This document shows positions 8,960 through 64,000 of a stretch of 64,000 nt of DNA, in pieces (within the stretch, counting starts at the first letter, position 1; each line of letters starts with the position of its first letter). The stretch is from Vulcanimicrobiota bacterium (GTDB lineage Bacteria > Vulcanimicrobiota > Vulcanimicrobiia > Vulcanimicrobiales > Vulcanimicrobiaceae): assembly GCA_963714015.1 (NCBI GenBank), contig OY970223.1, positions 128,001 to 192,000 of the forward strand. The letters are read 5' to 3'. The notes under the pieces were generated by a model. It made no database searches and was not told the origin of the DNA. It saw only the letters and a list, made by a program, of their open reading frames with translations. A program made the translations under genes and the position numbers.

Positions 8960-9006
8960 AAGCCCGGACCCTTTCGCAGCCGGGCTGCCCGGAACCTTAT
9001 AATAAC

Positions 9007-9034
9007 GAAGGCCCGCGCGCAAACGCAGGCCTTC
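9007..9034 (-). terminator. hairpin downstream of greA
   Basis: Minus strand GAAGGCCTGCG/CGCGGGCCTTC 11-bp stem (one G-U) followed by GTTATTAT. Confidence 0.45.
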
Positions 9035-9056
9035 ATTTATTGCTCGAGACGCGCCG

Positions 9057-9560
9057 TTAGGAAGCCTTTTTGGCCGCCTTCTTCGTGCTCTTGATCGACT
9101 CGATTTTGTATTTGACGATTCCGCGCGGGGTCGAGACGTCGACGGTCTCGCCTTTCTTGTGACCGATCAGCGCGCGGCCGAGCGGCGACTCGTTGCTGAT
9201 GCGCTGGTTCACCGGGTCCGCTTCAGCCGAGCCCACGATGGAAAACTCGTGACTCGAGGCGCCCTTCAAATCTTTGACCTTCACGCTGCAGCCCAAGTGC
9301 ACTTCGTCGCCGGCGTAGTCAAGATCGTCGATGATTCGGGCGTTTCGAATCATGGCTTCGAGCTTGAGAATCCGTCCTTCGATGAATGCCTGTTCTTGTT
9401 TCGCGTCTTCGTATTCCGCGTTTTCGCTCAGATCCCCGAATTCTTTGGCTTGCCGGATCCGGTCGTTGACTTCTTTGCGGTGGACGGTCTTCAGATCGTC
9501 GAGCTCTCGCTCGAGTTTCTCCAGGCCCTCTCTGGTAAGGACGATCTCTTTGTCGTTCAA
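9057..9560 (-). CDS. greA: transcription elongation factor GreA
   Basis: GDLSENAEYEDAK, ISNESPLGRALIG; TTG start. Confidence 0.97.
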   Translation of the reverse strand: MNDKEIVLTREGLEKLERELDDLKTVHRKEVNDRIRQAKEFGDLSENAEYEDAKQEQAFIEGRILKLEAMIRNARIIDDLDYAGDEVHLGCSVKVKDLKGASSHEFSIVGSAEADPVNQRISNESPLGRALIGHKKGETVDVSTPRGIVKYKIESIKSTKKAAKKAS

Positions 9561-48231: not shown

Positions 48232-50962
48232 TCAATGGGCCTTAGCCTCGCCTAAGGCGATCGCCGCTGCGCGGCCGTGGCTAAGTGCTGCGCCCTCGTC
48301 TGAAAGCTGTGCCAGTTCCTGTTCGGGGAGCATCCCGCGCAGCGCCGCATCGTAGCGCTCGCGAATGCGTCTCGAGGCATGCTGAGAATCATACTGCATT
48401 CGTTCGAACGCGCGCTTGGTGTACGCGGCGATTCTCGCTCCGGTGACGGCGTCGCCTTCCAGCGTGCGGGCGAATCCGAGGTTCTCGATTGCGCGCACCG
48501 ACATGACGCTCTCCGCATGGACGCCCGCGTCGCGCAGAATGGCGCATCCGATTTCCGCAGCCTCTCGGGCACGGCCGGAAAAAGCCAAATAGCCGCAGAG
48601 GTCGACGCGCTGCATCAAAGCGGCCAAACGAAATTTCGTGTCTTCGTTCGGCGGGATCGTTTCCTTTAAAATGTCGATCGCGCGCGAGACGTTTCCGCGC
48701 AGAAATTCGATATCTGCGATATTCAGATCGCAAATCATGACGTTGTCCGCATCGCCGGCCTGGACTTGCGAACGCCGCGTTATCTCAAAGGCTTGCACGG
48801 CCCCCTCGTAATCACCGCACGCAGCGCAAACCAAGCCCTTCGTACTCATGAGTACCATCTGCAGCCGCGTCTCGCCGGGCGGCGCGACGGAGAACGCTTC
48901 GTCTATGGCGGCGCGCGCTTCATCGACTTTGCCGACCATTGCCGCGGCATACGCGTACGCGCGCAAACCGTTTGCAACGTACGCCGCCTTTCCGCACATG
49001 CGGGCGTACCGCAAGGCCTCCGATGCGGCGTGAAGTTGTCCCCTGGCGCCGGGCAGATACCGGACCTGCACCCACAGGCGATACTTCAGTTCGGGATGCG
49101 TATCGGGAATCAATGCGATGTAGCGGTGCAGAAACTCAATCGCTTCGTTGACGATATTCAGATGTCCCCAGACGCTCAGCACCGCGGCGGCGAGTTCTGC
49201 GCCGCGCAGCGGACTGTGCTCCAGACCGCAATTCAGAGCCGCGCGCAGGTCTTGCAGTTGCGAAAATACGGCGTCCCGGAACGGCACGCGATTGCCCGTG
49301 CGCTCCGCGCGTTCCAATTCGCCTTTGAAACGGTCGCGAAAATATTCGAGGTGCCGCTCCGCGGTTTGCTCTAGCGCTCCTGCCGCTTCGAGCTTTTCCC
49401 GGCAGTACGCGCGCGTCGATTCCAGCAGCCGATACCGCATGGGATCGGAGTCGGGCACGGTCGATACGAGCGATTTGTCGACCAGAGATTGCAGCATGTC
49501 GAGCACTTCGAGCTCGTCCGGAGGTTCGTCGCCGGCGACGGCGGCCGCGCCGTCCGCCGTAAACCCGTCTACGAAAATCGAAAGACGTCCAAATACCGAT
49601 CGCTCGGCGTCCGTCAAAAGGTCGTAGACTCCAGTCGATGAGGGCGCGCAGCGTTTGTTGCCGGGGAAGCGTCGTACGCGCGCCTCCCGTAAGCATGCGA
49701 AAGCGCTCGTCGAGCCGATCGCGCAGCTGTTGCGGGCTCAGAATTTTGACGCGGGAGGCGGCAAGCTCTATGGCGAGTGGAATGCCGTCGAGGCGGTTGC
49801 AAACGTCCGCAACGATTGCCGCATTGCTCGGCGTCAATGCGAAGCGGTTGTTCGCCGCGGCCGCGCGGTCTGCGAAGAGTTGAGACGCCTGTTCCGGCGA
49901 CAGTGAGGGGAGCCGGTACGTCGATTCGCCGGCAATTTGAAGACTCTGCCGCGACGTCGCAAGAACGCGGATATTTGGGCACTGATTGAGCAACGCCGAA
50001 ACGACGCGGCTCACGGTATCGACGAGATGTTCGCAGTTATCCAAGATCAACAGCGCTTGCCGCTCTTTGAGCGCTGCCACGAGCGCCTCGAGCGGCTCCC
50101 CACCGCCCCCTGCCGTCGATGAAATCGCCTGCGCGATTGCGGGCGCCACGTAGTCGCCGCTGGTAAGCGGGGCAAGTTCGATGAACCAAACGCCGTCCGT
50201 CGCGCGGTCGATCAGATGGGCGCCGACTTGCAGTGCCGTGCGCGTTTTGCCTACGCCGCCTGCGCCGACAACCGTCACCAGCCGGTGCGCCGCAACGAGG
50301 TCCGCAATTTGCGCCACCTCTTCATCGCGCCCGATGAACGAACTGATCTGCTGCGGCAGATTGTTGGCCAGCGCGCTCATCGATCGAAGCGGCGGAAACT
50401 CGCTCCGCAAGCCGTCTCCAACGAGTTGGTAGACGCGTTCGGGCTGCGAAAGATCCTTAAGCCGGTGCGCCCCCAAATCGAGCACTTCCGGCATTGCATC
50501 CGCGTCCCTCAGGAGATCGCTCGTCGCACCGGAAAGCAGTATTTGGCCGCCATGCGCTATCGCCAGCAATCGAGCCGCTCGATTTACCGCGATGCCGAAA
50601 AAGTCTCCATCCCGCTCTTCGCAAGCACCGGTGTGAATTGCGGCGCGAACGAGCAGTCCGTCGATGGAGCTGAAGTCTTCGGTGCTTAGCGCGCGCTGCG
50701 CGGCGGTCATCGCCGCGACGGCATCAGCGGGCCGGGAAAACGCCGAATAAAACGCGTCTCCGAGGCACTTGAAGATGTGGCCGCCGTGCTCGCTAATTGC
50801 GGCGCGCAAGATCCCATCGTGGCGGCGCAGCGCCTCCTGCATCGCCGCCGCATTGCGATCCCACCGCACGGTGCTGCCTTCGATGTCGGTGAAGGCAAAC
50901 GTCACCGCGGGCGCCGTCGCGGAAGCGGCGCGCTGCGAAAGACGTTCCGAAGACATCTGCAT
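48232..50962 (-). CDS. class III nucleotide cyclase-STAND ATPase-TPR protein (frameshift near 49620)
   Basis: FTDIEGST, LGDAF, NRAARL; GAGGVGKT; LDNCEH; DGIPLAIELAA; YRLLESTR. Confidence 0.88.
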
Positions 50963-50985: not shown

Positions 50986-51882
50986 CTACGCAGGAACGGC
51001 TTGGCCCGCGCGGCCGCTTAGCCGCTTTCCAAGCGGGCCCCTATCGACGAGGGGGTAGCTGAAGAAATTCGAGCCGTTGCCCACGTCGTCCCAACGAAAT
51101 CCCTCAGGCAGGTTCAGGCGGTAGTCCATCTCCGTAAGAATTCGCAGCGACTCCTTGGTTGAGTCCGGATACTCGCCGCCCATTTCCAGATAAATTAGCG
51201 GCCTGTCTCGGGCAATCAACTCCCGGGCGCCGTCCAGTACGAACGGTTCGTAGCCCTCAGTGTCGATCTTTATGAGCGCAATGCGCCGCTCGCGCAGTTG
51301 CGTAACGTCGTCGAGACGCACTACTTGAACGGATTCCGATTGTGCGCCCGAGACGTCATGCGTCAGCGTGTCGTTTCCCGACGAGCCGGAGATCCGATTG
51401 AGTGTAAGCGTGGCAGGGCTCGAGCCGCAGCCCATATTCAGCGGAGTGACGCATCCGGAAAGTCCGTTTGCGTCGATGGTGCGAAGCAGCTTCCGAAACG
51501 TTCTCGGCGACGGTTCGAACGAAAAGATCCGCCCCGACGGGCCGGTAATGGACGCCATCAGGACCGTGGTCCACCCGAGGTTTGCGCCGACGTCGATTGC
51601 GGCATCGCCAGGCTTGAGCATCGCCGAGTAGACCGGCAGATCGTTTTGATGGTACTCCGCGTCGTGCATATGATAGGTCAGCTCTTGCACGTCGCCGTCG
51701 TCCGAGTAGATCAGTTTGATCCAGCCGTAATCGGCGAACCGATCGCCGTACGGATCCTTCGGCAAACGCCGGAGCGTTGCGGCGGTCGAGTAGCGATGCG
51801 CGTGGTTGGATAGCTTTTGCAGAAGCCGAAAAGCCAGCGGACGCACGTGCTGAACGGAGAGTCGCGGCGCGCTTAACCCCAT
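50986..51882 (-). CDS. FkbM-family methyltransferase
   Basis: IDVGANLG, FEPSP, IKIDTEGYE..VLDGA. Confidence 0.9.
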   Translation of the reverse strand: MGLSAPRLSVQHVRPLAFRLLQKLSNHAHRYSTAATLRRLPKDPYGDRFADYGWIKLIYSDDGDVQELTYHMHDAEYHQNDLPVYSAMLKPGDAAIDVGANLGWTTVLMASITGPSGRIFSFEPSPRTFRKLLRTIDANGLSGCVTPLNMGCGSSPATLTLNRISGSSGNDTLTHDVSGAQSESVQVVRLDDVTQLRERRIALIKIDTEGYEPFVLDGARELIARDRPLIYLEMGGEYPDSTKESLRILTEMDYRLNLPEGFRWDDVGNGSNFFSYPLVDRGPLGKRLSGRAGQAVPA

Positions 51883-52009
51883 GCGCGGATGATAACACCA
51901 CTGGAAGCGCCGCAAGCGTGTCGCCGGCCCATCTCCGGCGTGGTCATCCTGCCGAAGGCGCATAGCCGAGCATGCCCATCCAAGACCGGGACCCAGCTGC
52001 GGCGCCTGC

Positions 52010-52531
52010 CTAACGCCTCCGCGGTTTTGGAAAGACTTCGGAAACCTCGAACGTCAGCCAGGGAGCGGCCGCGTGCGCAAAGCGTTCGCCGGCGTGGAAC
52101 GTGCGGACGCCGTCGAGTGAATGTGCCGCGATGGCCTTGCAAGCGGGGTCGACGTCGAGCACCAGTATGGATCCGGTTGCCAAATAGCGCTCGATCTTGC
52201 GCCGAAGGTACAGCACGCGTACCGATGGAGAGCGGATTTCTATAGCGATGTCGGGGGCGAATGGCGGCTCTTCGGCTTCTTCGTCGCTTAGCCGCCCCAG
52301 CCGTTCCTTCGAAATGAACGCGATATCGGGCACGAATTCGCTCTCGCTATTATCCGCGGCCCCCACGCAGAAGCGCCACTCGGGCCCAAACTCTCCACGT
52401 TCCGCTGCGCAACGATCGAGAATGCGTAAGAGCGCCGCCTGCACCAAGGCGTGCGTCCGCCGGGGGCTCACTTTGGGATAGGGCCGTCCGTCGAGATATT
52501 CGAGTTCCGGCGGATCGTACAACGTAACCAT
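52010..52531 (-). CDS. Uma2 (DUF820) family PD-(D/E)xK endonuclease-like protein
   Basis: EYLDG...SP...H, PDIAF, APDIAIEIRSPS, KIERY. Confidence 0.88.
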   Translation of the reverse strand: MVTLYDPPELEYLDGRPYPKVSPRRTHALVQAALLRILDRCAAERGEFGPEWRFCVGAADNSESEFVPDIAFISKERLGRLSDEEAEEPPFAPDIAIEIRSPSVRVLYLRRKIERYLATGSILVLDVDPACKAIAAHSLDGVRTFHAGERFAHAAAPWLTFEVSEVFPKPRRR

Positions 52532-52534
52532 GGC

Positions 52535-52744
52535 TTACCTCCTAGACACCACGATGATGCTGTGCCCTTGGTGATCGTTCAGGAACTGGAGTCCCTCGAC
52601 GATCCAGCTGTCCAGGCCTCCGTGCGAATGTTTGGCTACTTCGCGCACGACGTGAATGCGATCTTTGAGCCAGGCCAGTTCCGAGCGAGTCGTCGGCGGC
52701 CAAATAGCAACCTCGCAATCTTCGCATTGATAGCCGTTAGCCAT
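52535..52744 (-). CDS. small CxxC/His protein (69 aa), possibly Zn-binding
   Basis: YQCEDC N-terminus and DHQGH C-terminus; GGAGG RBS for the downstream Uma2 gene lies in its 3' end. Confidence 0.55.
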   Translation of the reverse strand: MANGYQCEDCEVAIWPPTTRSELAWLKDRIHVVREVAKHSHGGLDSWIVEGLQFLNDHQGHSIIVVSRR

Positions 52745-53014
52745 GGCCCACTCTGCGCTGTCGCAAAAAGAGCGTCCTCCAATCGGACTACAATTCATGC
52801 GGCAGACGTCTCAGCGCTTCATGGTGCGAGGAGACGTATAGTTTGCCGATGCAGTTCGATACGCTCGTGAAGTGGCGCTGCCCTCAATTGCTTTTGACGT
52901 AGTTCCAATTCGCCGCGAGCCGTATTCGTTCTACGAAGACTTTCCAGGCTGCCCGCAGCCGCCGCTGATTTCCCTTCCCCCAGAAAGTCGACGCATTGGC
53001 GAAGCGTTCGCTCG

Positions 53015-54707
53015 GTGTCAAAGACACGCCGCTCTCCCGCATGGTTCTCCAGCTCGGCGTTCAACGCAACGGGCCTTTCGGCGTTCCTGCGCAGTGCTTC
53101 AGCGCGGCTCCCGGAGCTGTTGAACAGCGTGGATATTCGGCGGTCGGCCGGGGACATTCAAAACGCCGCAACGGTAGCGATCGAGGATGACCCGGCCTGC
53201 GCCGATGCGTTTGTCCGAAGCGCAAGTCTTCTCAAAGCGGCTTGGTCGATGTATGCGGACATCTTCAGCGGCCGCTTTGCACCCGACGAACTCAACGGAG
53301 TGCCGCTCGAGATGCGGCAGTATCCGAACGTGTTCGGAACGACGTCCTGCTACGAGAACGGCGCGATCCGCCGGCGCAAGAGCGCCGCCGTTTCTCGAGT
53401 TTTGGTTCTTGCGCGCGGACAAACGTTCGTGCTCGACTTCGGCCGGGATTGGGCCAATCTGGCAATCGATGATATTGCGAGCGCCTTCAAGAAAACGTGG
53501 AGCGAATCGTACGCATCGGATGCAGCCAATCGCGGAGCGAGCCTTGGTCTAGTATCGGCGACGAACGATAAACTGCAGCGATCGCTATTCGAAACGACCC
53601 TCCGTCATGCGACGAATCGCCAATCGCTCGCGGAGCTCCAGAATACCTTCTTGACGATTTGTCTAGATTTGGATGCGGAGCCGCGATCCTACGCTGAAGC
53701 GCTGCAGATTGCTCATGGAGGAAACACGCCGAATCGCTGGTTCAACGCAAGCACGCAAATTGTGGTTTTCGGTAACGCGCGGTCTTGCGGGATTTTCAAT
53801 TTCTCCGCTTGCATCGACGGCAACGTGATGATGCGCACCGCAAGCGAGCTGCGCGCCCGTGCGGCTCGGTACACTTCCCAGGCGGAGCATCGTGCGGAGC
53901 GGATGGGGGAGTCCCCGCCGAAAGCGCGGCGGCTCCGCTGGCTCATAGATGCGCAGGTTATCAAACGGGCGCAATCCGATCTCGCACAACTCGCCGACAG
54001 CGCGCAGTTCACTTTTGAACTTCCAGGCTATGGAAGCGCGCGATTCCATTCCCGAGGATTGGAACCGGTTTCAGCCTTCGTCATGGCGGTCAATATTGCG
54101 GCGTCCCGGATACTCCGCCGAGCACCCATCGTGTCGGAGTTTCTTACGCAGTCGCGATACCGGTACATGGGCGTCCGGTCAATCGTAACGACCACTCCTG
54201 AACATTTACGTTTTTTCGAGGCATTAGAATTACCCCAGCGAGATGTTCGTCATGCGCGGGCCGCTTTCGAAAACGCCTGCGCGAAACGGGCGCAGGCCTG
54301 CCGCAATGCTCGCTCCGTCTTGGCAATTCTTCCCGCGATCGATCTCTTCCGGAGCACCCTAGACACGCGCGGCCGAAAGACGTTCAATCGCAAGCTCTAC
54401 GGGTGCGTCGCCTTGCTGAGACGGCTGGGCCTTTCGGTGCCGCCGACCGACGTCACCCTCTCCTCTCCGGCGCTCGCGCCGGGAGTCCGATTCGTGGGAC
54501 GTTCGGGTGTGCGAACGCGCAGCACCGGCGGATTCCTGATGCATTATCACCTCTTAGAAGATCGGCTGGTGGTCACCGTTATGCCCGGCATCGAATGCCG
54601 CCATTCCAACGAGACTGATGGTTGCAGAAATTCGCCGGGCTCTGGACGATCTGCTGAACCTTTTTACTAATAGTAATTGCTCCTCCGCCGAAGGTGCGGA
54701 CGGCTGA
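53015..54707 (+). CDS. choline/carnitine O-acyltransferase-like protein (frameshift near 54615; start uncertain)
   Basis: RSASLL, PLEMRQYPNVFGTT, FLTICLD, NRWF.ASTQIVV..N, IDG; family-like C-terminal helix EIRRALDDLLNLF in another frame ending at 54707. Confidence 0.75.
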
Positions 54708-54777
54708 ATCGCAAACACAGATGGTTGCCGGCTCATTACGCACGCCGGCTTGCGTACTAAAACGGAGGCGCCATCTC

Positions 54778-54948
54778 ATGGAGTACGCCGCACCGAACGT
54801 CCTGACGTCTTACCTCGTTCCGGAGCTCTCTCGGGATGCAAGGGGCTTTGCCAGCGATCCCGTCTTCTGCGATCGTGACGAGCGCGCAGACTCGGGCCAT
54901 TATCCGGACTGCACGTATACCTTCGTGCCTCGCGGCGGGTACGACTAG
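54778..54948 (+). CDS. putative RiPP precursor peptide A1 (56 aa)
   Basis: MEYAAPNVLTSYLVPELSRDARGFASDPVFCDRDERADSGHYPDCTYTFVPRGGYD; ACGGAGG RBS; paralog of A2. Confidence 0.85.
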   Translation: MEYAAPNVLTSYLVPELSRDARGFASDPVFCDRDERADSGHYPDCTYTFVPRGGYD

Positions 54949-55064
54949 CCCGCCGCTTTTGCGGCATCTCGCCAAACGGCCCATTAATCCGACCGCAGAC
55001 GGCTCAGCGCTCTATAGTACGACGGCACGTATGGCCGTCCGTTGCCCTCGGATACGCTCATTTT

Positions 55065-56301
55065 ATGTGGAGCACTTCGCCTGCGGGGCGCGCCGCTTTG
55101 GCATGGCTGCTCACGCCGCTTTCGATTGAAGAGTTTCAATCGCAGTACTACGAGCGTGCGCCGATGCACGTTGCCCGCGACCGAGCTGGATATTACCAGC
55201 GCGTCTTCGATCTGCTCGAAGTGGAACGCATTCTCTACGCCAGCGAGCTTCACAAAGCCGATATCCGCCTGGTCAAAGACGGCGTGCCGGTGCGGCCGGA
55301 GTCATACCTGGTTCCGAAGCCGGTCTGCAAAGAGAACGAGCTCGAGCCGTATACCGATCGGGTCGACGCCGATCGGATCAGTGCGCTGTTTGCGAGCGGG
55401 TGCTCTATCGTCATGCACGACGTGCGCTCGCTTTCGGCTCCCGCGGCAAATTTCTGCCGTGAGTTGGAGATGCTCTTTCATCACCGCGTCTCGCCCAACA
55501 TGTATCTTACGCCCCCCGGTAATCAGGGCTTCGACGCGCACTACGACACGCACGATACGGCGATCGTGCAGATCGAGGGAACCAAGCACTGGCGCGTCTA
55601 CGAGTCGGCGTTTCCGCTTCCGCTGGACGATCAAACGTTCGATAAGCGCCTACACACTCCGGGAAAAGTTTGCATCGAGGCAGACCTGCGCCCCGGCGAT
55701 TTCCTCTACATCCCTCGCGGTTTTTTGCACGAGGCCAAGGCGAACGAGGACCTTTCGCTTCATTTGACGCTGGGTTTATATCCGCGTCGCTGGATCCAGG
55801 TGCTAAAGAAAGCGCTGGACGATGCCGGCGAGGCAGCGGAGAACGCGCTGCTGCGAGAGACGGCCACAGCCGAGAGCGTTCCGGCGCTGCACGCACTGCT
55901 GCAAAGCATCTTGGCGCATAGCGCGCTCTGCGCTGCCGAAGTCGCGATCGAAAACCAATTCGTGCGAGAACGGCGAAACGGGCTGGACGGCCAGATGAAT
56001 CAGATTTCCCGCTTGCGGGAGCTGGGCGAGGAATCGCTGGTTGCGCTGCGGCCGAACGTGCTGTACGAGCTGACCGAGAGCGAGAAAACCGCGCGGTTGG
56101 CGTTCTCCGGAAAGAATTTGGTGTTCGGAGCCGGCGCAAGCGGCATCATCCGGGAACTCGAAGGCGCGGCTTCGCGCGCGGGCCGGCGATCTGCTCAAGC
56201 ACGATCCCAAAGCGCTGGCGATCCTGCGTAAGCTGATTCAGGAAGGCTTTGCCGTTCAACTTCCTCCCGCGCAGCAGCGCGCAGCGCGAACGGTAGCCTA
56301 A
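55065..56301 (+). CDS. JmjC/cupin-4 Fe(II)/2OG oxygenase 1, NO66/RoxA-like (frameshift near 56180)
   Basis: YLTPPGNQGF.AHYDTHD..QIEG.KHW and PGDFLYIPRG..HEA (HxD...H); C-terminus HDPKALAILRKLIQEGFAVQL continues in another frame to TAA at 56301. Confidence 0.92.
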
Positions 56302-56322
56302 CTAAACACCGGCACGCTCGCC

Positions 56323-56394
56323 GAAACGTCCGTTCTGCACGTGCCGCGCAACCACCCGGGATAATACAGCCGGTATTGCAGTTTAGCCGCCGTC
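56323..56394 (+). pseudogene. relic of a further JmjC paralog N-terminus
   Basis: ETSVLHVPRNHPG*YSRYCSLAAV aligns with paralog segments ERKVLYLPRNDAQFFQGDFSLAEV and ERAPFHISRNESGRYDRYFSLQEM. Confidence 0.5.
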
Positions 56395-56606
56395 CGACCT
56401 TAGCGCCGGCTGCACCACATAACGCATAGTCCGATCGGCCCTCACGCCGAACATTTCACGTGTTTCTCAGGTCTTTCTCAGCAGCGGACGCCCCAGCGCA
56501 AGATGGTGCGCAGGGCGTTTGTGGCTCTCTCCACCGGTGCGTTATGCTCTGGTTGTGCCGGTGTATGCGCAACACCGGCGTGCTTACAAACGGAGGCACT
56601 ATTCTT

Positions 56607-56783
56607 ATGGAGTACACCGCACCCAAACTCCTGACGTCGTATGCGGTTCCAGATCTTTACAGCGATGCCAAAGGCTTTGCCAGCGACCCGCTGTATTGCG
56701 ACCCGAACCGGAGTGGCGATCTGGGTAACTACCCGAATTGCAACCCAAGCGCCAACATCGTTTGGCACCAACCGTACGACTAA
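56607..56783 (+). CDS. putative RiPP precursor peptide A2 (58 aa)
   Basis: MEYTAPKLLTSYAVPDLYSDAKGFASDPLYCDPNRSGDLGNYPNCNPSANIVWHQPYD; ACGGAGG RBS; 27/45 identical to A1 without gaps (hand count). Confidence 0.85.
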   Translation: MEYTAPKLLTSYAVPDLYSDAKGFASDPLYCDPNRSGDLGNYPNCNPSANIVWHQPYD

Positions 56784-56812
56784 CGGATTACCGGCGGCTG
56801 GCGCCGCCATCG

Positions 56813-56850
56813 ACGAAGACCCGGCAAGTTCGTGCCGGGTCTTCGTTTTT
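56813..56850 (+). terminator. intrinsic terminator/stabilising hairpin after precursor A2
   Basis: Perfect 14-bp stem ACGAAGACCCGGCA/TGCCGGGTCTTCGT followed by TTTT. Confidence 0.85.
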
Positions 56851-56964
56851 GCATGGGCTATCCGGCCTATGTGAGTTAAGTGTTCCAGGTCACGCCTACG
56901 TGAGGCCGGCGCCCGTTGGCGGCTCGCTCTTCGCGGACTACGCTAGAGGAAAAGGAGCCGACTG

Positions 56965-58191
56965 ATGGCCGCTGTTTCGCGCGATCGCACGACCCTGGCG
57001 TATCTGCTTGCGCCTCTTTCGATCGACGAATTCCTCAATGGGTACGCGCAGAGATCGCCTTTGCACGTCCGACGGGACGTCGAAGCGTATTATGAGCGAT
57101 ACTTCAACCTGAGCGAGTTCGAACGCGTCATATTCGGCTGTAAAATCACGACCGATGATCTGCGGATGATCAAGGACGGAACGCCGGTGCGTGAGGAGTC
57201 CTACATCTGGGAAGCTCCGAAAAAGTATACACCGCCTACGGTAACGTATCGCAGCAGCGTCGTGGACGCAGACCGCTTGGCCGGGCAGTTCGCGCACGGC
57301 TGCACGGTCAACATGAACAACATCGAACGCTACTCGCCTGGCGCGGCGTCGCTCGCCCGCGATCTTTCCGCGTTCTTTCAGAGCGGGGTTGGCGCAAATG
57401 TCTATCTGACGCCGCCGGGAAACCAAGGGTTCGGCGCCCACTACGACACGCACGACACAATGATCTTACAGATCGAGGGATCCAAGCGCTGGCGAGTATA
57501 CGAGCCGACGATCGAGTTGCCGCTCGACCATCAAATTTATCATCGCATCGGACATACGGTGCCCGGTCCATTGCTCTTCGAAACCGATTTGATGCCCGGC
57601 GATTTGCTCTACTTGCCGCGCGGCTTCTTTCACGAAGGGAAAGCCAACGAGGAACTCTCACTCCACGTCACATACAGCATCGCTCAGCCGCGCTGGGTGC
57701 AAGTTGCAATCGAAGCCCTCATGCGAGCCGCGGAATCGGACGTCCGCCTGCGCCGCTTCGCGGTCGATAGTCCTTCCGACGTCCCGGCCGCCCTCGCCGC
57801 GGCGTTGACCCCGGAGTTGCTGCAAGCCGCGCTGGACCGGTTGCGCGCTGAATTCCATGCCGTGTACCGCAGCGAGCTGGACGGCCAGCTGCGCCAGGTT
57901 GCGGCCTTGAACGATCTCTCGGAGCATTCGTTTATCTCCAAACGGCCTAGCGTTCTCTATGACGTCGAGGAAACTCCGAACGGCGTGCGCCTGACCTTCG
58001 CGGGCAAGACGGTCGGTCTTCCAGCCTCTGCAAAAGCCGTTGTCAACGAGCTCGACAGCGTTTCGGCCGTTGCCGTTTCCTCGCTGGTTGCGCACGATCC
58101 TAAGGCGCTCAACATCGTCCGGCGCCTCATTCAGGAAGGCTTTGCCGTTCAATTGCGGCCCGAGCGCAACCACAGCGCATCGGTTGCCTGA
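56965..58191 (+). CDS. JmjC/cupin-4 oxygenase 2
   Basis: NVYLTPPGNQGFGAHYDTHD, PGDLLYLPRGFFHEG; AAGGAG RBS. Confidence 0.93.
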   Translation: MAAVSRDRTTLAYLLAPLSIDEFLNGYAQRSPLHVRRDVEAYYERYFNLSEFERVIFGCKITTDDLRMIKDGTPVREESYIWEAPKKYTPPTVTYRSSVVDADRLAGQFAHGCTVNMNNIERYSPGAASLARDLSAFFQSGVGANVYLTPPGNQGFGAHYDTHDTMILQIEGSKRWRVYEPTIELPLDHQIYHRIGHTVPGPLLFETDLMPGDLLYLPRGFFHEGKANEELSLHVTYSIAQPRWVQVAIEALMRAAESDVRLRRFAVDSPSDVPAALAAALTPELLQAALDRLRAEFHAVYRSELDGQLRQVAALNDLSEHSFISKRPSVLYDVEETPNGVRLTFAGKTVGLPASAKAVVNELDSVSAVAVSSLVAHDPKALNIVRRLIQEGFAVQLRPERNHSASVA

Positions 58192-58213
58192 GCGGCCATG
58201 AACTGCGCATAAA

Positions 58214-59176
58214 ATGATCCCCCAATCAGCCGTGCCGATCCGTCTTATCCGCCGCGAAGGAGAAATCGGCGTCGATTGGCTCCGGCTCACTGCGTCGAAC
58301 ATGTCCGAACCGTTCTTCTTTCAGACCGTAAAACGGCTCAGGGAAGCCGGAGAACGCTACGTTTTCACCGGAGCCGACGAGTTGACGGCCTTTGCCGAAC
58401 GCTCGCACGACGTGAAGACCGCCTTTATTTTTCACGTTTCGCACTGCGGGTCGACGCTTCTCGCAAATGCGTTGAAAACCGTGGCAAATGCAGTTGTGAT
58501 CTCGGAACCGGCGTTGATGACGCCTGGTCAGCTTTTGTCGCCCTCGGCACGAAAGGCGTTCGGCCGATCTACGCTCGAGGCGCTCATCCTGGGCGCCGTC
58601 AACGCTTACGCTCTGAACGGGCCGCCAAAGCGTTACGTGTTTTTTAAGTTCATGGACTTGGCCAGCCTTGCGCTACCGACGCTGCGCCGCATGTTTCCGG
58701 CCGTCCCGTTTGTGTTCATCTATCGCGAACCCAGCCACGTCATTGCCTCGAACCTTGAGGAGGTGCCGGAAGATCTGCGTCTGAGCGCTGCGCCCGACAT
58801 TAAAGCCTTGCTCGGGAAGGATCAGGCTTGGGAGCCTTCCGCGACGGCCTGGTGGTCAGCAATATACGAGGCCGAGTGTCTGCGGGCGGCCGTAGCGCCG
58901 AACACGGTTATGGTAGACTACTGTGATCTGAACGATACCCGCGCAGTTCAGTTGATGTGCCACCTGGGAATGAACAGTGGCGACATCGACAAGGCTGCAG
59001 TCTCGACAACATTCGGGCGCTACTCGAAGGCCTCGCCAACCCAGAACATGACGTTCTCGCCGGCAGCGGACTACGAGCGCCGCCGCACTACGGCAGAACG
59101 AATGGATCCTGGAGAGTATCTCCCCGCAAGCGCAGCTTACCGGCGTCTGCGCGCGATGAAAGCGCGAATCGCATAG
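58214..59176 (+). CDS. sulfotransferase-fold (P-loop) protein
   Basis: FIFHVSHCGSTLL (5'-PSB-like), VISEP, FVFIYREP.HVIAS (3'-PB-like). Confidence 0.75.
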   Translation: MIPQSAVPIRLIRREGEIGVDWLRLTASNMSEPFFFQTVKRLREAGERYVFTGADELTAFAERSHDVKTAFIFHVSHCGSTLLANALKTVANAVVISEPALMTPGQLLSPSARKAFGRSTLEALILGAVNAYALNGPPKRYVFFKFMDLASLALPTLRRMFPAVPFVFIYREPSHVIASNLEEVPEDLRLSAAPDIKALLGKDQAWEPSATAWWSAIYEAECLRAAVAPNTVMVDYCDLNDTRAVQLMCHLGMNSGDIDKAAVSTTFGRYSKASPTQNMTFSPAADYERRRTTAERMDPGEYLPASAAYRRLRAMKARIA

Positions 59177-59183
59177 GAGCGTT

Positions 59184-60416
59184 ATGTGGAACTTTAAGTA
59201 TGACCAAGTGCTGCGCCGTTTCCTGACCCCGGTTCCGCTTGAACGTTTCCTGTCCGAATACTACGAGCGCAAAGTTCTGTACCTTCCGCGAAATGACGCG
59301 CAGTTTTTTCAGGGCGATTTCAGTCTGGCCGAGGTCGATCGATTCCTTCACAGCGTTGAGATTTCGGCCTCTTTTCTGCATGTCCTAAAAGACGGCGTCG
59401 GGACACCCGTCGCGGAGTATTCGCGCAACGTTCCGCGTTCCGATCCCGTTACGCATACCAGCGGCCAGGCGGCGATACTGGACCCGGGTCTCGTCGGCGA
59501 CTTTTTTGCCCGCGGCCATACGCTGCACTTCGATCATATACGTTCGTATAGTCCACAAGCAGCAGCGCTCTGCCGCGAGCTCGAGGGTTTCTTCGGCCAT
59601 CGCATCCGATGCACCGCATTCTTGACGCCGTCGCACAGTAAGGGATTTCGACTTCACTACGACGTGTACGATACATTCATTCTGCAGATTCACGGCTCCA
59701 AACGCTGGCGCGTGTCCGAAACGATGTTTCCGCTGCCGCTCGTGAGCCAGTTTTACACGCCTGACATGCAACCCGGCCCGTTGCTTCTGGATACCGTGCT
59801 GCGCCCTGGGGACTTCTTGTATATGCCGCGCGGCACGTTTCACGAAGCGGCAGCGGACGACGAAGCCTCGCTGCACTTGTCGATCGTGCCGGACCCCCTG
59901 CGATGGGAAGCGGTATTTCACCGCGTGCTGTCGGAGGTTGCGAAGGAAGAACTCCCGCTCCGTAGCAGCACGGCGACTCCGCTGAACGAGGAGGAGCTGG
60001 AAGTCATCGGAAGGCGCGTCTTTTCACGGGTGAGATCCGAAACCGCCAAGGACGAGCTGGAACTCGATTTTTACACGACGCGGCGAAACGACGGCAGCGG
60101 GCAGCTGCAGCAGATCTTGGATGCCGATCGGATCACGCCGCTTACGCAGATCTCCATTCGCGCCGGGTCGCTGTACAGCCTAAGCGAATCGGACCTGACC
60201 GCAACGGTGCGCTTTTCGGCAAAAGTCCTTCAGCTGCCGCGGAGTGCAGCGGAAATCGTCCGAGCTCTCGAATTGAACGGCCCGATGCCCGTGGCGGCGT
60301 TTCTCAAGTACGACGGAAACGCGCTTGCAATCGCGCGCACGTTGCTCAAGAGCGGCTTCTTAATGATGTCCGCGGAGCCGGAGAAGACCGGTGCAGTGCG
60401 CGTCCGATTGGGCTAA
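59184..60416 (+). CDS. JmjC/cupin-4 oxygenase 3 (most divergent)
   Basis: AFLTPSHSKGFRLHYDVYD..LQIHGSKRW, PGDFLYMPRGTFHEA. Confidence 0.92.
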   Translation: MWNFKYDQVLRRFLTPVPLERFLSEYYERKVLYLPRNDAQFFQGDFSLAEVDRFLHSVEISASFLHVLKDGVGTPVAEYSRNVPRSDPVTHTSGQAAILDPGLVGDFFARGHTLHFDHIRSYSPQAAALCRELEGFFGHRIRCTAFLTPSHSKGFRLHYDVYDTFILQIHGSKRWRVSETMFPLPLVSQFYTPDMQPGPLLLDTVLRPGDFLYMPRGTFHEAAADDEASLHLSIVPDPLRWEAVFHRVLSEVAKEELPLRSSTATPLNEEELEVIGRRVFSRVRSETAKDELELDFYTTRRNDGSGQLQQILDADRITPLTQISIRAGSLYSLSESDLTATVRFSAKVLQLPRSAAEIVRALELNGPMPVAAFLKYDGNALAIARTLLKSGFLMMSAEPEKTGAVRVRLG

Positions 60417-61153
60417 AGAGTACGCCGTCGCTTTAGAGGCGCGAGCAAATCCCTGGCCCCGCGCGCTGCAGCCCGGCTCCCTGGGAGCGCTCCTTTCTCC
60501 GGACGAGCGTGAGCCGGACTGCCATCGCTGGCTAGCGCATCGTATCTCCGAGGCGAGGTCGCAGCAGGCATCCCTTGTCGGCCGCGCGCAGGACGCGGTT
60601 CGCATGGAGTTCACGTTGCGCTATTCCTGGTCGATACCGACGCGTGAAGCACTCGATGCAATCGCACGCGCTCGCCGGGTGGAGTCTTAGAGGTCGGCGC
60701 CGGAAACGGCTACTGGTCGTTTCTGCTGCGCTCCCGCGGCATGCCGTTCGTTGCGGTCGACCGTTTTCCGGTTGAGAGCGGTTCAAACCCGGCCTGGAAG
60801 CTCCGATCCGCAGCCCGCTCGCGCCCAATCTCACGCGCCCTGGACGGCCGATGGAGCCGGTAAACGGAAAAGAGATCGCGACAGTACGGCAGCCGAGCCG
60901 GCGCTGCTCATCTGCTGGCTCTATTCGGCGCGCACGCTTCAAACGTATGAAGGCGGCACAATCGTGTTCGTCGGAGAGCCTCGCGGCCGTAACGATTTTC
61001 TACGAATTCTACGACGAACTGCTCGGCGAACTGGAGCGTCGCGGGGCGAGTGAGCGCGATTCCGCGCTTCTTCAACTCCCACGATTCACTTTGGATTTTC
61101 CGCCGAAGAAGCGGCTCCGGACGGCCCGGCCCGATCGGCCCATTCCGGCATGA
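60391..61153 (+). CDS. class I SAM-dependent methyltransferase, multiply frameshifted (possible pseudogene)
   Basis: YSWSIPTREAL, VLEVGAGNGYWSFLL..RG....AVD and LLICW...YEGGTIVFVGE read from different frames; boundaries approximate. Confidence 0.7.
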
Positions 61154-61200
61154 TGCGCCGGTTTGATGGCTCCCGAAGGTTTCCGCGCTAAGCTGCCGCT

Positions 61201-62421
61201 ATGTGGAGCTCATCGGCAGCCGAACGGGCCGTTTTTTCTTGGCTGGTCGCGCCTCATTCCATCGACGATTTCGCCGGGCATTACGAGCGCGCGCCGTTTC
61301 ACATATCGCGCAACGAGTCCGGACGCTACGATCGATATTTCAGTTTGCAGGAGATGGAGCGCGTGCTCTTCGGGTGCGAGCTGAACGTCAAGGATCTGCA
61401 GATCATCAAAGACGGCACCGCCGCTCGCCCCGAGACCTACACTCGCTCGCATTCCGAACCGAAACATCCGCTCGATCAGGCCGCCGGTGAAATCGTGAAC
61501 CCCGACCGCGCGAGCGCCCTCTTCGCAAGCGGGTGCACGGTCGTGCTCGACAACGTCAACAAATATTCCGCGTCGATGGCGTCGCTGTGCCGCGATCTGG
61601 AGATGTTTTTCGGCTGCCACGTCAACCCGAACGTCTACATGACGCCGCCGGGAAATCAAGGCTTCGCGGTTCATTACGACACGCATGACGCGCTGATCGT
61701 CCAAATCCGCGGATCGAAGCACTGGCGCGTGTACGAGTCCGCATTCCGGCTGCCGCTCGAGCATCAATACTGGGACAAGAAACTCTACCCCGCCGGCAAT
61801 ATGGTGCTCGATATGGAGATGCGGCCCGGGGACTTCCTTTACATTCCGCGCGGCTGCCTGCACGAGGCGAAGGCCAATGACGAGCTTTCGCTGCACGTAA
61901 CCATCGGACTCTATCCGACCCTTTGGACGCACGTCGCCGCGCAAGCGCTGATGAGGGCGGCGGAGGCGCTTCCATCGCTGCGGCAGGCGGCCGACGAAGA
62001 CGCAGCGGAGGCAATCTCGGCCGAGCTCGCGCAGGTCCTTGCGCCCGCGCGTCTGACCGAAGCTCTGCGCGCAGCCCGGCGAAGCTGGCGCAACGATCGC
62101 GACAACGGCCTCGAAGGACAACTCGAACAACTCGCCGCGCTGCCGCATCTGAACGAAGCGTCGATCGTGCGCAGGCGTCCGAACCTCTCTTACGAGTGGA
62201 TGGAGACCGAGCGCGGCGTCACGCTCACGTTTTCGGGAAAAACGGTGATACTCTCCAAGTCCGCGGCCGTCGTCATTCGCAAACTCGAAGCGGCCTCCGA
62301 ACTGGACGTCGCCGCACTCTGCGAACAAGACGAAAGTGCGCTCAAAGCGGTGCGCAAGCTGATTCAGGAAGGGTTCGCGATTCAGGAGCTCGGCGGCGAA
62401 CGCCGCTATAGAATCGCGTAG
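61201..62421 (+). CDS. JmjC/cupin-4 oxygenase 4
   Basis: NVYMTPPGNQGFAVHYDTHD, PGDFLYIPRGCLHEA, C-terminal RKLIQEGFA. Confidence 0.93.
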   Translation: MWSSSAAERAVFSWLVAPHSIDDFAGHYERAPFHISRNESGRYDRYFSLQEMERVLFGCELNVKDLQIIKDGTAARPETYTRSHSEPKHPLDQAAGEIVNPDRASALFASGCTVVLDNVNKYSASMASLCRDLEMFFGCHVNPNVYMTPPGNQGFAVHYDTHDALIVQIRGSKHWRVYESAFRLPLEHQYWDKKLYPAGNMVLDMEMRPGDFLYIPRGCLHEAKANDELSLHVTIGLYPTLWTHVAAQALMRAAEALPSLRQAADEDAAEAISAELAQVLAPARLTEALRAARRSWRNDRDNGLEGQLEQLAALPHLNEASIVRRRPNLSYEWMETERGVTLTFSGKTVILSKSAAVVIRKLEAASELDVAALCEQDESALKAVRKLIQEGFAIQELGGERRYRIA

Positions 62422-63668
62422 ATCGTGTGACCGTCGGCGATCAAGATCGTATTTCCTAACAAAACGGGCGGCGAAACGGAAAACGGTTCATTGAACGGCT
62501 GCTCGCGCAACACGCTTCCCGTTGCGGCGTTCAATGTGTAGAACATTCCCGCCGTATCGCCGACGAATACACGCCCTCCGGCGGTCACGGGGCTCATCTT
62601 AATCGGAGCGATCGACGTGAAGCGCCAGCGCACGGCTCCCGATCGCGCGTCGAAGGCGATCAACTCGTCGCTCGTGGGCATTGCTTGAAAATACATGCCC
62701 GCGGCATAGGTGCCGGCGATGGCGCGCTCCGACGATCCGACTTCGGTGTAGGGACCGGTGCGCGGACTGCGGTAGGTCCAGCGAACTGCGCCCGTATGCG
62801 CATCCAGCGCGGTCACGATCGTGCGCCCTTCCTTGCGGCTCGACCAGTTGCTCGCGTCGTTTTCGACGTTGCTTACGAAAATCGATCCCGCGCCGTAGGC
62901 CGGCGAGCAATCCGAATTGCCGAAGGGCGCGCTCCACAGCTGTTTTCCCGATTCCGGGTCGAGCGCATACGTGCGGCAATGATAAGGCCACGTGTAGTCG
63001 CATGCGGAAACGTAGCCCACTCCGCCGGCCAGCGTCGAAGAGGCCATGGTAGCGGGACCGACCAGCGCGTCTTTCCAGCGCAGGTTGCCGGATGCTGCGT
63101 CCAAACCGTAGGCGTGAAAGTCACCGTTCGCAAAAAAGATCGTGCCGCCGTCGATCGCCGGAGAAGGCATGTCTTCGCCGACAGTCGGGAAGGCCCACCG
63201 CTGCGCGCCGGTGCGCGCGTCGAACGCGATCAAACGATCGCCGCCGGGCCGCCCCCAGACGAGATTTCCGCTGTGCTCCGGATCGGTCGAGAGTTTCGGA
63301 TTGGGGATTCGCGCATTCGTCCCGGAACCGACGTACACGATGCCGTTTGCCAGAACCGGCGTCGACATCAATACGTCGTTTGTATGAGTGCGCCACAGCA
63401 CTTTGCCGTTCTTGGCATTAATTGCCAAAAGCTCGTTCGCAAAGGTGTCGACGAAAAGCGTCGTGCCCGCCACCGCGAATCCGCCGTTGACCTGCTGACC
63501 GACGTCGAGCTTCCAATGCGTGCTGAAACCGTCCAGAGGCACGACGGCGTTGTGATCGGGCGTGCGTTGAAACATCGCCCAAGAGTCGGATGGCGACACG
63601 TTCGCGGTCGCGCCATGACTGCACGCGCAGAGAACGGCGAGCAGAGCAAGTACTGAAAGCCTTACCAT
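62406..63668 (-). CDS. PQQ-like (BamB-type) beta-propeller lipoprotein
   Basis: Lipobox-like LCAC after a signal peptide; repeated A.DA.TG...W blades. Confidence 0.85.
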   Translation of the reverse strand: MVRLSVLALLAVLCACSHGATANVSPSDSWAMFQRTPDHNAVVPLDGFSTHWKLDVGQQVNGGFAVAGTTLFVDTFANELLAINAKNGKVLWRTHTNDVLMSTPVLANGIVYVGSGTNARIPNPKLSTDPEHSGNLVWGRPGGDRLIAFDARTGAQRWAFPTVGEDMPSPAIDGGTIFFANGDFHAYGLDAASGNLRWKDALVGPATMASSTLAGGVGYVSACDYTWPYHCRTYALDPESGKQLWSAPFGNSDCSPAYGAGSIFVSNVENDASNWSSRKEGRTIVTALDAHTGAVRWTYRSPRTGPYTEVGSSERAIAGTYAAGMYFQAMPTSDELIAFDARSGAVRWRFTSIAPIKMSPVTAGGRVFVGDTAGMFYTLNAATGSVLREQPFNEPFSVSPPVLLGNTILIADGHTIYAIL

Positions 63669-63779
63669 ACTCGAAGGTTCTTTTTGCAGCCCGATACTCC
63701 CCGCATGCAAACGTCTCATTCTGCCGTAAGCCATTACGCCCATGAAGTCACGACGCCGGGGCTTTACTATCAAAAGAGC

Positions 63780-64000
63780 ATGCGCATCGCCTTCGTCTGT
63801 CCTTTGCTTCCGCCGCATTATAACGGATGCGGAGACGCAACGGATCGGCTTGTGCGCGAGTTCCGGGAACGCGGCGACGAAACGCTCGTGCTTACCGACG
63901 ACGTCGCCGGCGTACTGCATCCCTTTCCGATGAAGAGCGTCGGCGGGTGGGGCGTGCGCTCGCTCTTCGAAACGAAACGCGCGGTGGCGGCCTTCCGGCC
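63780..64000 (+). CDS. GT-B (GT4-like) glycosyltransferase, N-terminal part, runs off the window
   Basis: Hand translation MRIAFVCPLLPPHYNGCGDATDRLVREFRERGDETLVLT...AVAAFR; open to the window end. Confidence 0.7.
   Translation, partial: MRIAFVCPLLPPHYNGCGDATDRLVREFRERGDETLVLTDDVAGVLHPFPMKSVGGWGVRSLFETKRAVAAFR

Follow-up and report, generated by a model that had tools for sequence, protein, structure and literature searches.

Two small genes in the genome of a Vulcanimicrobiota bacterium (GenBank assembly GCA_963714015.1, contig OY970223.1) are best read, from their sequences, as encoding the translated precursor peptides of an unannotated family of the RiPP type (peptides made by the ribosome and modified after translation), found so far in Eremiobacterota-type genomes. 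They lie in a stretch of 64,000 nucleotides, positions 128,001 to 192,000 of the contig, which is the window analyzed here. The two peptides, called A and B, have a conserved N-terminal half and a hypervariable C-terminal half, and each gene is followed on the same strand by a gene for an Fe(II)/2-oxoglutarate oxygenase of the JmjC_2 family (PF08007) which appears to have the fold of the ribosomal oxygenases (ROX enzymes). We put the probability that the N-terminal half is a leader which guides the oxidation of the C-terminal core by this ROX-type enzyme at about 0.7.

Peptide A (56 residues) is encoded on the forward strand at 54778..54948, with coding sequence to 54945 and then the stop, and peptide B (58 residues) on the same strand at 56607..56783, with coding sequence to 56780 and a stop ending at 56783. 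A first-pass annotation of this DNA had proposed two paralogous peptides here; its coordinates were exact, and its 27 identities in 45 positions became 27 in 46 ungapped columns in BLASTP (E 6e-21). It was also right that both peptides are concealed within longer reading frames with wrong starts: the mechanical list of open reading frames (ORFs) holds only longer GTG-start frames, 54694..54948 (84 residues) and 56460..56783 (107 residues). The sequence evidence indicates that the short ATG starts are the real ones, because each has a GGAGG ribosome-binding site on the forward strand (54764..54768, 9 nt 5' of the ATG, for peptide A, and 56592..56596, 10 nt 5', for peptide B), because the homologues have a common M-x-Y start, and because most matches in the protein library begin at their own residue 1. 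The 30 nt 5' of the two starts are alike. All 11 homologues examined start with M-x-Y-x-x-P, and 10 have a purine-rich stretch of the GGAG, GGAGG or AGGA type 5-12 nt upstream, while L016 has only GAGCGA.

The genome (G000) is a single contig of 3.56 Mb, 89.6% complete. Besides the two copies in the window it holds a third, more distant family member at 202,913-203,038 on the reverse strand, 11 kb beyond the window end. A and B use different codons for 12 of their 27 identical residues. A soil-metagenome DNA run (X1, share 0.17) gave six short, low-depth contigs, 95-99% alike, which are too thin to serve as evidence; they show one difference in the covered coding part of peptide B (56615 C>T, read as synonymous, TAC to TAT), 7 differences in the covered stretch 5' of peptide B (56461-56574), and none listed within the covered parts of peptide A.

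The family reaches far beyond this genome. A profile made from A and B only found relatives in 8 other genomes among 401 sampled from the phylum. A 13-row profile (two rows, L008 and L015, from the unpublished genome G247) was then searched against 1.84 billion proteins, one representative for each 50%-identity cluster of about 15 billion. At E<=0.001 it matched 49 proteins, 10 of which also passed E<=1e-10, and with few exceptions the matches are 30-60 residues long; at least five were identical to profile rows and two more were near-identical, which leaves about 42 new members. The first-pass annotation had suggested scanning for small homologues with a profile of the two N-termini. Ten family peptides were looked up, and each was either nameless or listed just as "hypothetical protein"; the models of Pfam and NCBIfam gave no match to the family, and a word-index protein search with peptide A returned only itself. 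The family is real, well beyond chance.

The alignment used below has 42 rows: A, B and 40 library matches. It omits eight sequences: the truncated P0134 and P0159, the N-terminally extended P0144, P0151, P0152 and P0160, then P0162, and the duplicated variant P0165. By eye, P0144, P0151, P0152, P0160 and P0162 have two-cysteine cores; P0134 has three cysteines and P0159 ends before any. P0165 (97 residues, from a 227-kb metagenome contig) carries two tandem related leaders of the form M-x-x-Y-E-T-P-Q-[IV]-V-A-S-Y-S-I-D-E-L in a single ORF, with A-A-V-C-T-G-Y-D-G in place of G-F-x-S. A profile of the 42 rows matched 10 of the 401 phylum genomes, this one included, in 9 of 116 genera. The genome counts from this profile and from the two-sequence profile include G247, and all conclusions stand without it.

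Within the alignment the first 26 residues are conserved and the remainder is hypervariable, with a mean pairwise identity of 0.48 for the leader versus 0.26 for the core; the leader/core architecture that had been proposed for the pair thus holds family-wide. The leader consensus is M-x-Y-x-x-P-x-[ILV]-x-x-[ST]-Y-x-[VA]-x-x-L-[YFLV]-x-x-[AG]-x-G-F-x-S. Y3, P6 and S26 are invariant, Y12, L17, G23 and F24 occur in at least 90% of the rows, and most rows have I, L, V or M at position 8. In 32 of the 42 rows the conserved block has a length of 26 residues, in the others 25-28. It corresponds to 54778-54855 in peptide A (residues 1-26) and 56607-56684 in peptide B. A leader of about residues 1-23 had been suggested; the conserved leader is there, and its boundary lies elsewhere, as the block extends through G23-F24-x-S26. 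Many different residues stand at position 22 (R, K, S, Q, T, C, H and others), therefore nothing indicates the cleavage near A-(R/K)-G that had been put forward. The invariant G-F-x-S may be part of the recognition sequence, a protease site, or both.

The sequences past S26 gave no confident alignment, and the cores vary from 5 to 32 residues in length. They are rich in Asp (16.1%), Gly (15.8%), Cys (9.2%), Pro (8.0%), Asn (7.5%) and Thr (7.5%), with Glu at only 0.7%, and their net charge runs from 0 to -6. Exactly two cysteines occur in 39 of the 42 cores, separated by 3 to 19 residues. At least two Asp or Asn residues are present in 41 of the 42, and 37 of the 39 two-cysteine cores have Asp or Asn within the stretch between the cysteines. 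His (14/42), Arg (9/42) and Tyr (14/42) are less common. The cores of A (54856-54945, 30 residues) and B (56685-56780, 32 residues) are unusually long and contain Arg, His, Tyr and Trp. When A and B are aligned with each other, both have Cys31 and Cys45 and each ends in Tyr-Asp, as had been noted for the pair. Across the family the cysteine pair of the supposed C-x13-C loop persists and the x13 spacing does not; that spacing and the terminal Tyr-Asp are limited to A, B and their closest relative, P0123, and C-terminal residues are otherwise diverse. Likewise, if the D/N/H/R/P side chains that the core had been thought to present include one common type of target, it would be Asp/Asn and not His, Arg or Pro.

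Synonymous-biased divergence also marks the leader. Over leader codons 2-26 the proportion of nonsynonymous differences (pN, 0.16-0.39) is below that of synonymous differences (pS, 0.53-0.79) in 8 of 8 pairs, and the ratio of nonsynonymous to synonymous rates (dN/dS) is 0.11-0.31 in the five pairs with unsaturated dS, 0.20 for A versus B. Between A and B, pN is 0.28 in core codons 27-46 and 0.16 in the leader. The leader is under purifying selection, in line with what the first-pass annotation expected of true homologues.

The peptides pair tightly with the oxygenase. Ten related loci (L018-L027) were taken with 8 kb on each side; in nine of them (one, L024, from G247) a JmjC_2 homologue starts 85-210 bp 3' of the peptide on the same strand, and the same arrangement is found at L034 in genome G142. 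In the reverse direction, all 13 oxygenases of the clade at E<=1e-10 in five genomes (G000 4, G294 4, G366 3, G142 1, G055 1, some of them in pieces from frame breaks) lie within 4.5 kb of a family peptide. Among 57 neighbouring ORFs in nine loci, with L024 left out, no other family recurs in all. A tblastx comparison of four intergenic gaps of the window block, including the 785-bp gap at 60417-61200, with 15 related loci gave scattered weak matches and no further conserved small gene.

Four such oxygenases are encoded in the window, all on the forward strand, with PF08007 scores of 85.4-98.1 bits against a cut-off of 22. Oxygenase 1 (55065..56301, E 1.1e-25) starts 117 bp after peptide A, and its metal motifs, HYDTHD and FLHEAKA, are readable. 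Oxygenase 2 (56965..58191, 408 residues, E 2e-27) is intact and starts 182 bp after peptide B. Oxygenase 3 (59184..60416, 410 residues, E 3.1e-24) is of a divergent "second-enzyme" type, and oxygenase 4 (61201..62421, 406 residues, E 3.7e-28) is the window's nearest relative of the peptide-adjacent enzymes elsewhere (45-55% identity). The residues of the HxD...H Fe(II) triad, H159, D161 and H223, are invariant in 58 homologues, oxygenases 2, 3 and 4 among them. The AlphaFold2 model of oxygenase 2 has a mean confidence (pLDDT) of 93.2, and in Foldseek it matches NO66 end to end over 468 columns (E 4.5e-27, TM-score 0.72), followed by MINA53 and YcfD. Judging from this model, the enzyme has the ROX fold of a JmjC barrel, dimerisation helices and a winged helix, together with the metal triad. 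Homologues bear source names such as "ribosomal protein L16 Arg81 hydroxylase" or "NO66", and their sources include Candidatus Eremiobacteraeota and Vulcanimicrobiaceae metagenome-assembled genomes.

A quick tree, the only phylogeny made of the oxygenases, places oxygenases 1, 2 and 4 in a 36-row clade (support 93) with all of the peptide-adjacent enzymes. Oxygenase 3 falls elsewhere in the tree, as the partner of the L018 locus's second oxygenase (support 96). Oxygenases 1, 2 and 4 each stand beside a different metagenomic orthologue and are therefore old paralogues, not recent tandem copies. No other ROX homologue was found in this genome outside the block at E<=1e-10, and a single-protein scan of genome contigs with oxygenase 4 found only one irrelevant Pirellulaceae locus.

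The leader itself points to recognition by a PqqD-like domain. Y-x-x-P is described as the characterised lasso leader recognition sequence for PqqD-like domains in PMC12710340. A sister branch of peptides shares Y-x-x-P-x-[IV] and A-S-G-F-A-S with the family, and within about 20 bp downstream of it there is a discrete PqqD (PF05402, E 6.7e-9). Peptides with the shared leader stand beside a discrete PqqD at five loci (L047/L053, L052/L054, L048/L055, L051 and L044; L051 is from G247). The present genome has exactly one PqqD (G000:C1:202655-202849), and it adjoins the third family peptide with its homologous leader. In genome G400, locus L025 on contig C8 has a PqqD (7563-7844, 93 residues), a family peptide (8001-8123) and an oxygenase (8216-9472) in one row, which may represent a transitional stage in evolution between the two types of cluster. 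Altogether this supports the view that the leader is a recognition sequence, as the YxxP motif had been read by the first-pass annotation.

The sister cluster of this genome spans G000:C1:199,000-206,000 (about 6,100-13,700 of L053), with its peptide at L053 9914-10039 on the reverse strand. Its order is LuxR, NTP_transf_5 (PF14907), ABC ATPase, ABC-2 permease, peptide and PqqD, followed by a P-loop kinase-like ORF (167 residues, apparently truncated), an S24-like peptidase and a 329-residue lipoprotein-like ORF. The order is the same in G294 (L054) and G366 (L055) and partial in G247 (L051), and there is a weaker example at G055:C75. No lasso cyclase was found in the region, and it looks like a cyclase-less, lasso-derived peptide cluster which shares its leader with the JmjC-type peptides. 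A literature search for an account from 2026 of cyclase-less clusters of the lasso type brought up nothing relevant.

The oxygenases bring a candidate recognition fold of their own. In oxygenase 2 the winged-helix, RRE-like domain (RRE, RiPP recognition element) covers residues of about 318-400, at 57910-58188. Modelled alone it has a pLDDT of 84.8 and the order strand-strand-strand(-strand)-helix-helix-helix. In VIA-align it is closest to the ROX enzymes MINA53 (Z 11.0, root-mean-square deviation 2.5 over 82 residues) and NO66 (Z 8.8), and it also aligns to recognition elements: PqqD (Z 7.5), the PbtF RRE, TigE, TbiB1 and MccB (7.3), TbtB (7.0) and TfuB1 (6.6). By the tool's own note a Z of about 7 is middling, and it speaks for likeness of fold, not for binding. 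Foldseek with the isolated domain gave nothing at E<=0.001, the best being TfuB1 (0.034), MINA53 and YcfD. At the sequence level the winged helix of oxygenase 2 and the discrete PqqD showed no likeness in BLASTP (E 0.49), and the Pfam model ROXA-like_wH matched 1 of 12 members (E 0.009). Among the peptide-adjacent enzymes the domain has a mean column identity of 54% and 8 invariant columns. Genome G142, which is 93% complete, has a JmjC-type peptide and no PF05402 match at E<=0.001; the only candidate leader reader there is the enzyme's own C-terminal domain. For the complex of peptide B and oxygenase 2, a prediction from an alignment of each scored 0.00 against a mark of 0.32 with controls not run, and carries no weight for or against.

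These pieces lead us to propose the following mechanism. Residues 1-26 would act as a recognition leader, with the lasso-like Y-x-x-P-x-[I/L/V], the [S/T]-Y, L17 and the G-F-x-S junction as its main features. The cognate enzyme would be the Fe(II)/2-oxoglutarate oxygenase 85-210 bp downstream, a member of the ROX branch that was recruited from ribosomal proteins to a small peptide. The leader would dock as a beta-strand on a recognition-element fold, either the enzyme's own winged helix or, where present, a discrete PqqD, and the core would enter the JmjC active site, to be hydroxylated most probably at the beta-carbon of Asp or Asn. The two cysteines may then form a disulfide that closes a loop. 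In the window, four paralogous oxygenases would work on two precursors, probably at different sites, and extra modification sites are likely there because of the long A and B cores with Arg, His, Tyr and Trp and the four oxygenases. The sulfotransferase-like and acyltransferase-like proteins encoded nearby may decorate the new hydroxyls. In this scheme we infer that the leader is bound, which oxidation takes place and where, that a disulfide forms, that the leader is removed and the product exported, and what its biological role is. Beta-hydroxylation of Asp or Asn as the specific reaction is a tentative choice, somewhat short of even odds, and was made because Asp and Asn are the near-universal side chains of the cores besides Cys and Gly.

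Several observations weigh against this proposal. The distribution is patchy, as only 10 of the 401 phylum genomes match the 42-row profile and neither of the 2 other genomes from the genus of the present one does. At L022 (G294) a family peptide has no oxygenase within 8 kb. Pfam scans found no protease or exporter in the gene block of the window, and none consistently among the 57 ORFs of the nine related loci, therefore there are no candidate genes for leader removal and secretion. No fixed modification site could be aligned in the cores, and the choice of Asp and Asn comes from composition alone. An adjacent PqqD occurs at only 1 of 11 JmjC-type loci (L025), with none near the other 10 or in the window. 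Other family peptides use a PqqD-centred gene set, so the leader is not specific to oxygenases. An ancestral part of ROX enzymes, the winged helix scores higher against MINA53 than against any RRE, and its presence alone is no proof of leader binding. Finally, oxygenase 1 has a frame break at about 56131-56180, in its C-terminal winged-helix domain: tblastn finds it as two pieces in different frames, the listed ORF ends at 56231, and the remaining domain runs in another frame to the TAA at 56299-56301. The gene may be a true pseudogene, or the break may come from an indel error in assembling long reads; the public contigs do not cover the region (56139-56300). An assembly error is conceivable because the assembly has other split genes, such as the UDP-glucose/GDP-mannose dehydrogenase at L053 4240-5548 on the reverse strand, which lies in two overlapping ORFs, one with the N-terminal domain and the other with the central and C-terminal domains.

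Other explanations have been considered against this background. That A and B are chance open frames in GC-rich DNA, or untranslated remnants of a duplication, is an idea with almost no chance of being right. High-GC genomes are rich in spurious ORFs, there are 138 ORFs of at least 30 residues in 12 kb here, and a look for RNA evidence brought none, but such frames would hardly have 49 library homologues, frame-specific conservation with synonymous-biased divergence, conserved ribosome-binding sites and a fixed position before the same enzyme across genera. Another rival is a reader in trans: the discrete PqqD (here G000:C1:202655-202849) would read the leader, and the winged helix of the oxygenase would be uninvolved. 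The location of the genome's one PqqD beside a peptide with a homologous leader favours this, as do the PqqD directly before a JmjC-type peptide in G400 and the presence of a PqqD somewhere in 4 of the 5 genomes checked. G142 with its JmjC-type peptide and no PqqD, the ten JmjC-type loci with none nearby, and the good conservation of the winged helix speak the other way, and we regard a PqqD in trans as unlikely, though well worth keeping in mind.

The pairing may also be right and the chemistry different, so that no stable hydroxyl is left. The enzyme would then form a cross-link or change the core oxidatively in another way, for example by closing a macrocycle that involves the cysteine pair or an aromatic side chain, by desaturating a residue or by altering the backbone. 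The cysteines found in 39 of the 42 cores, whose number is the one strictly kept trait of the cores apart from their acidity, could be the reacting residues rather than a passive disulfide, and alpha-ketoglutarate enzymes are listed among cross-link formers in PMC12797325. Yet the characterised fold relatives that were checked (NO66, MINA53, YcfD, BipG/PbsQ and PhaI) are all hydroxylases, and rings templated by an enzyme do not usually come with a cysteine spacing as loose as 3 to 19 residues; we hold this account to be rather improbable. Still less probable, in our judgment, is that the peptides are intracellular regulated substrates, decoys or regulators of ROX-type oxygenases, for example in an oxygen or 2-oxoglutarate switch like that of FIH and HIF, where the conserved N-terminal half may be a docking helix or strand. 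It would agree with the absence of a protease or exporter from the block and from the conserved part of the related loci, with a minimal conserved unit of only two genes, and with the absence of another ROX homologue in this genome (E<=1e-10). However, a hypervariable C-terminal half behind a conserved N-terminal half is the pattern of a precursor; there are multiple divergent copies per genome (three matches in G000, five in G294) with several paralogous enzymes; and the same leader occurs in the sister cluster with PqqD, an ABC transporter and a kinase-like gene, a typical RiPP set. The leader-guided oxidation of a precursor core by the ROX-type enzyme is thus the account we prefer.

A bolder extension of leader-guided oxidation would hold three things at once: the winged helix found in all ROX enzymes is a working peptide-recognition element, the clade is a RiPP class with the ROX enzyme as sole maturase and no separate RRE, and the product, formed by several paralogous ROX enzymes from a disulfide loop rich in Asp and Asn, is a poly-beta-hydroxy-Asp/Asn metal chelator. 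We consider this combination a long shot. Beta-hydroxy-Asp and beta-hydroxy-Asn groups are classic Fe(III) and Ca(II) ligands in non-ribosomal siderophores, and the acidic two-cysteine cores suggest metal binding, by way of speculation. If true, the ROX-made product would be a ribosomal metal chelator, here possibly further O-sulfated or acylated. The use of the leader by the PqqD/kinase-type cluster as well would then show swapping of leader and recognition domain between unrelated maturases, and there would be a hint of a common origin for the ROX winged helix and the RRE.

The remaining features of the block concern its transcription and its accessory genes. Between peptide B and oxygenase 2 lies a terminator-like hairpin on the forward strand (56812..56851), with a 15-bp stem followed by UUUUU. 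RNA folding gave -28.6 kcal/mol and z -6.5, with 0 of 200 shuffles as stable; the one that follows peptide A falls short of significance (z -1.15). The strong hairpin and U5 after peptide B fit a precursor that is transcribed in excess over its enzyme. A simple consensus scan found no sigma-70-like promoter in 52500-62600, and the same scan did not pick up the hairpin behind peptide B. In 51500-62600 there was no match to Rfam.

The forward-strand block opens with a choline/carnitine acyltransferase-like gene at 53015..54670 (PF00755, E 3.4e-36). Such proteins are rare in bacteria. The catalytic His of choline acetyltransferase aligns to a Ser in this one, so that it may be inactive or work in a different mode, to judge by the alignment, and tblastn found no homologue of the gene in L018-L027. 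A sulfotransferase-like gene (58214..59176, forward strand, 320 residues) stands between oxygenases 2 and 3. Its match to Pfam Sulfotransfer_3 is weak (E 0.0065, below the cut-off), an Atlas feature search links it at 0.98 to "putative sulfotransferase" clusters, and it has two homologues in L026; sulfotransferase-like genes recur in 2 loci. Both accessory genes are in few or no related loci and are therefore strain-specific additions.

Around the block, a PQQ_2/BamB-like beta-propeller occurs near the pair in four loci: the window (62406-63920, reverse strand), L021 (582-2021), L023 (10752-11717) and L027 (11054-13330). The window copy is 46% identical to that of L021, and synteny alone may account for the recurrence. 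On the opposite strand just 5' of the block are genes for an FkbM-family methyltransferase (50986-51963) and a Uma2-family endonuclease-like protein (52010-52531), with no tie to the block. At 48232-50962, also on the reverse strand, an ORF with adenylate/guanylate cyclase and NB-ARC/STAND NTPase parts ends in an Arg-rich, nonsense-like tail, and the ORF overlaps with one for TPR repeats that is read in a different frame; a frame break has probably divided a single cyclase-STAND-TPR gene.

The finding matters in several ways. JmjC hydroxylases in RiPP pathways are already known, as late tailoring steps. The family adds a precursor and a leader motif outside the Pfam and NCBIfam models, which mining tools keyed on known precursors would miss. 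The one conserved maturase is of the ROX type, whose known role is the hydroxylation of ribosomal proteins. So far this type has been met in RiPPs only for optional tailoring late in a pathway, and here it seems to be what defines the pathway. The literature searched, with the supplements of PMC12710340 outside its scope, described neither this precursor family nor a defining maturase of the ROX type. The family also offers a testable case for an idea touched on in PMC12710340, that a JmjC_2-fused winged helix is a genuine leader-binding element. The producers are little-known bacteria of soil, their phylum has few cultured members, and the two-gene cassettes are easy to take into heterologous expression. 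A 2025 report in J Am Chem Soc (147:26693) is said to describe 2-oxoglutarate-dependent macrocyclization in RiPPs and may bear on novelty.

Known systems resemble this one in part. With the ROX enzymes (YcfD/RoxA of E. coli, human NO66 and MINA53) the oxygenases share the three-domain fold, the HxD...H triad and a winged helix that aligns best to that of MINA53. Their identity to these enzymes is only 16-22%, their genes stand behind small precursor-like peptide genes, and a cluster can hold as many as four paralogues, so that the peptide, and not a ribosomal protein, is the likely substrate. ROX enzymes hydroxylate Arg or His, and these target residues are in the minority of cores given above. 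FIH, a JmjC enzyme, beta-hydroxylates Asp and Asn on proteins, which is the chemistry proposed here, and structures of FIH with Asn and Asp substrates are among the fold matches (E about 1e-8). FIH differs in having no winged helix, and it matches the barrel only (TM-score 0.35). CinX of cinnamycin belongs to another 2-oxoglutarate oxygenase subfamily. It is described as a RiPP Asp beta-hydroxylase, and CzlI, a more distant JmjC enzyme, as acting on Phe, in PMC11575548.

With lasso peptides the family shares Y-x-x-P-x-[L/I/V] near the start, including the invariant Y3 and P6, and the C-terminal domain of the oxygenase aligns to the leader complexes of the lasso B1 proteins TbiB1 and TfuB1. The junction is different: lasso precursors have Thr at -2, and this family has G-F-x-S. 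A lasso pathway was rejected for A and B, as the genome's only matches to PF00733 are at 1,415,660 and 2,482,193, far from the window, and no PF13471 (Transglut_core3) protease was found in it at E<=0.001. Related too is the work of Bregman et al. 2025 (mSystems, PMC12710340), which in its main text notes the closest bacterial JmjC homologues (about 30% identity) of RRE-fused eukaryotic proteins in RiPP-like contexts; the remark on RRE-JmjC fusions takes one sentence there and comes with no precursor family, motif or product.

Further precedents are the biphenomycins and phaeornamide, whose enzymes BipG/BpmG/PbsQ and PhaI are described in PMC12707348, PMC12257519 and PMC8784127 as PF08007/JmjC Fe(II)/2-oxoglutarate ornithine hydroxylases that act on RiPP precursors. 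They are late, optional tailoring enzymes that use arginase-made ornithine, in clusters with an MNIO and a B12-dependent radical SAM enzyme or with a LanM and a GNAT, and with NHLP or other leaders. A pathway of this type was rejected here: MNIO, B12-dependent radical SAM enzyme, LanM, GNAT and arginase were all absent from the Pfam results for the window genes and related loci. A and B both contain Arg, with the same Pfam results holding no arginase to convert it. The likeness is in the pairing of a PF08007/JmjC Fe(II)/2-oxoglutarate enzyme with a ribosomal precursor peptide. What sets the family described here apart is that no partner but the oxygenase is conserved and that its peptides have a different kind of leader.

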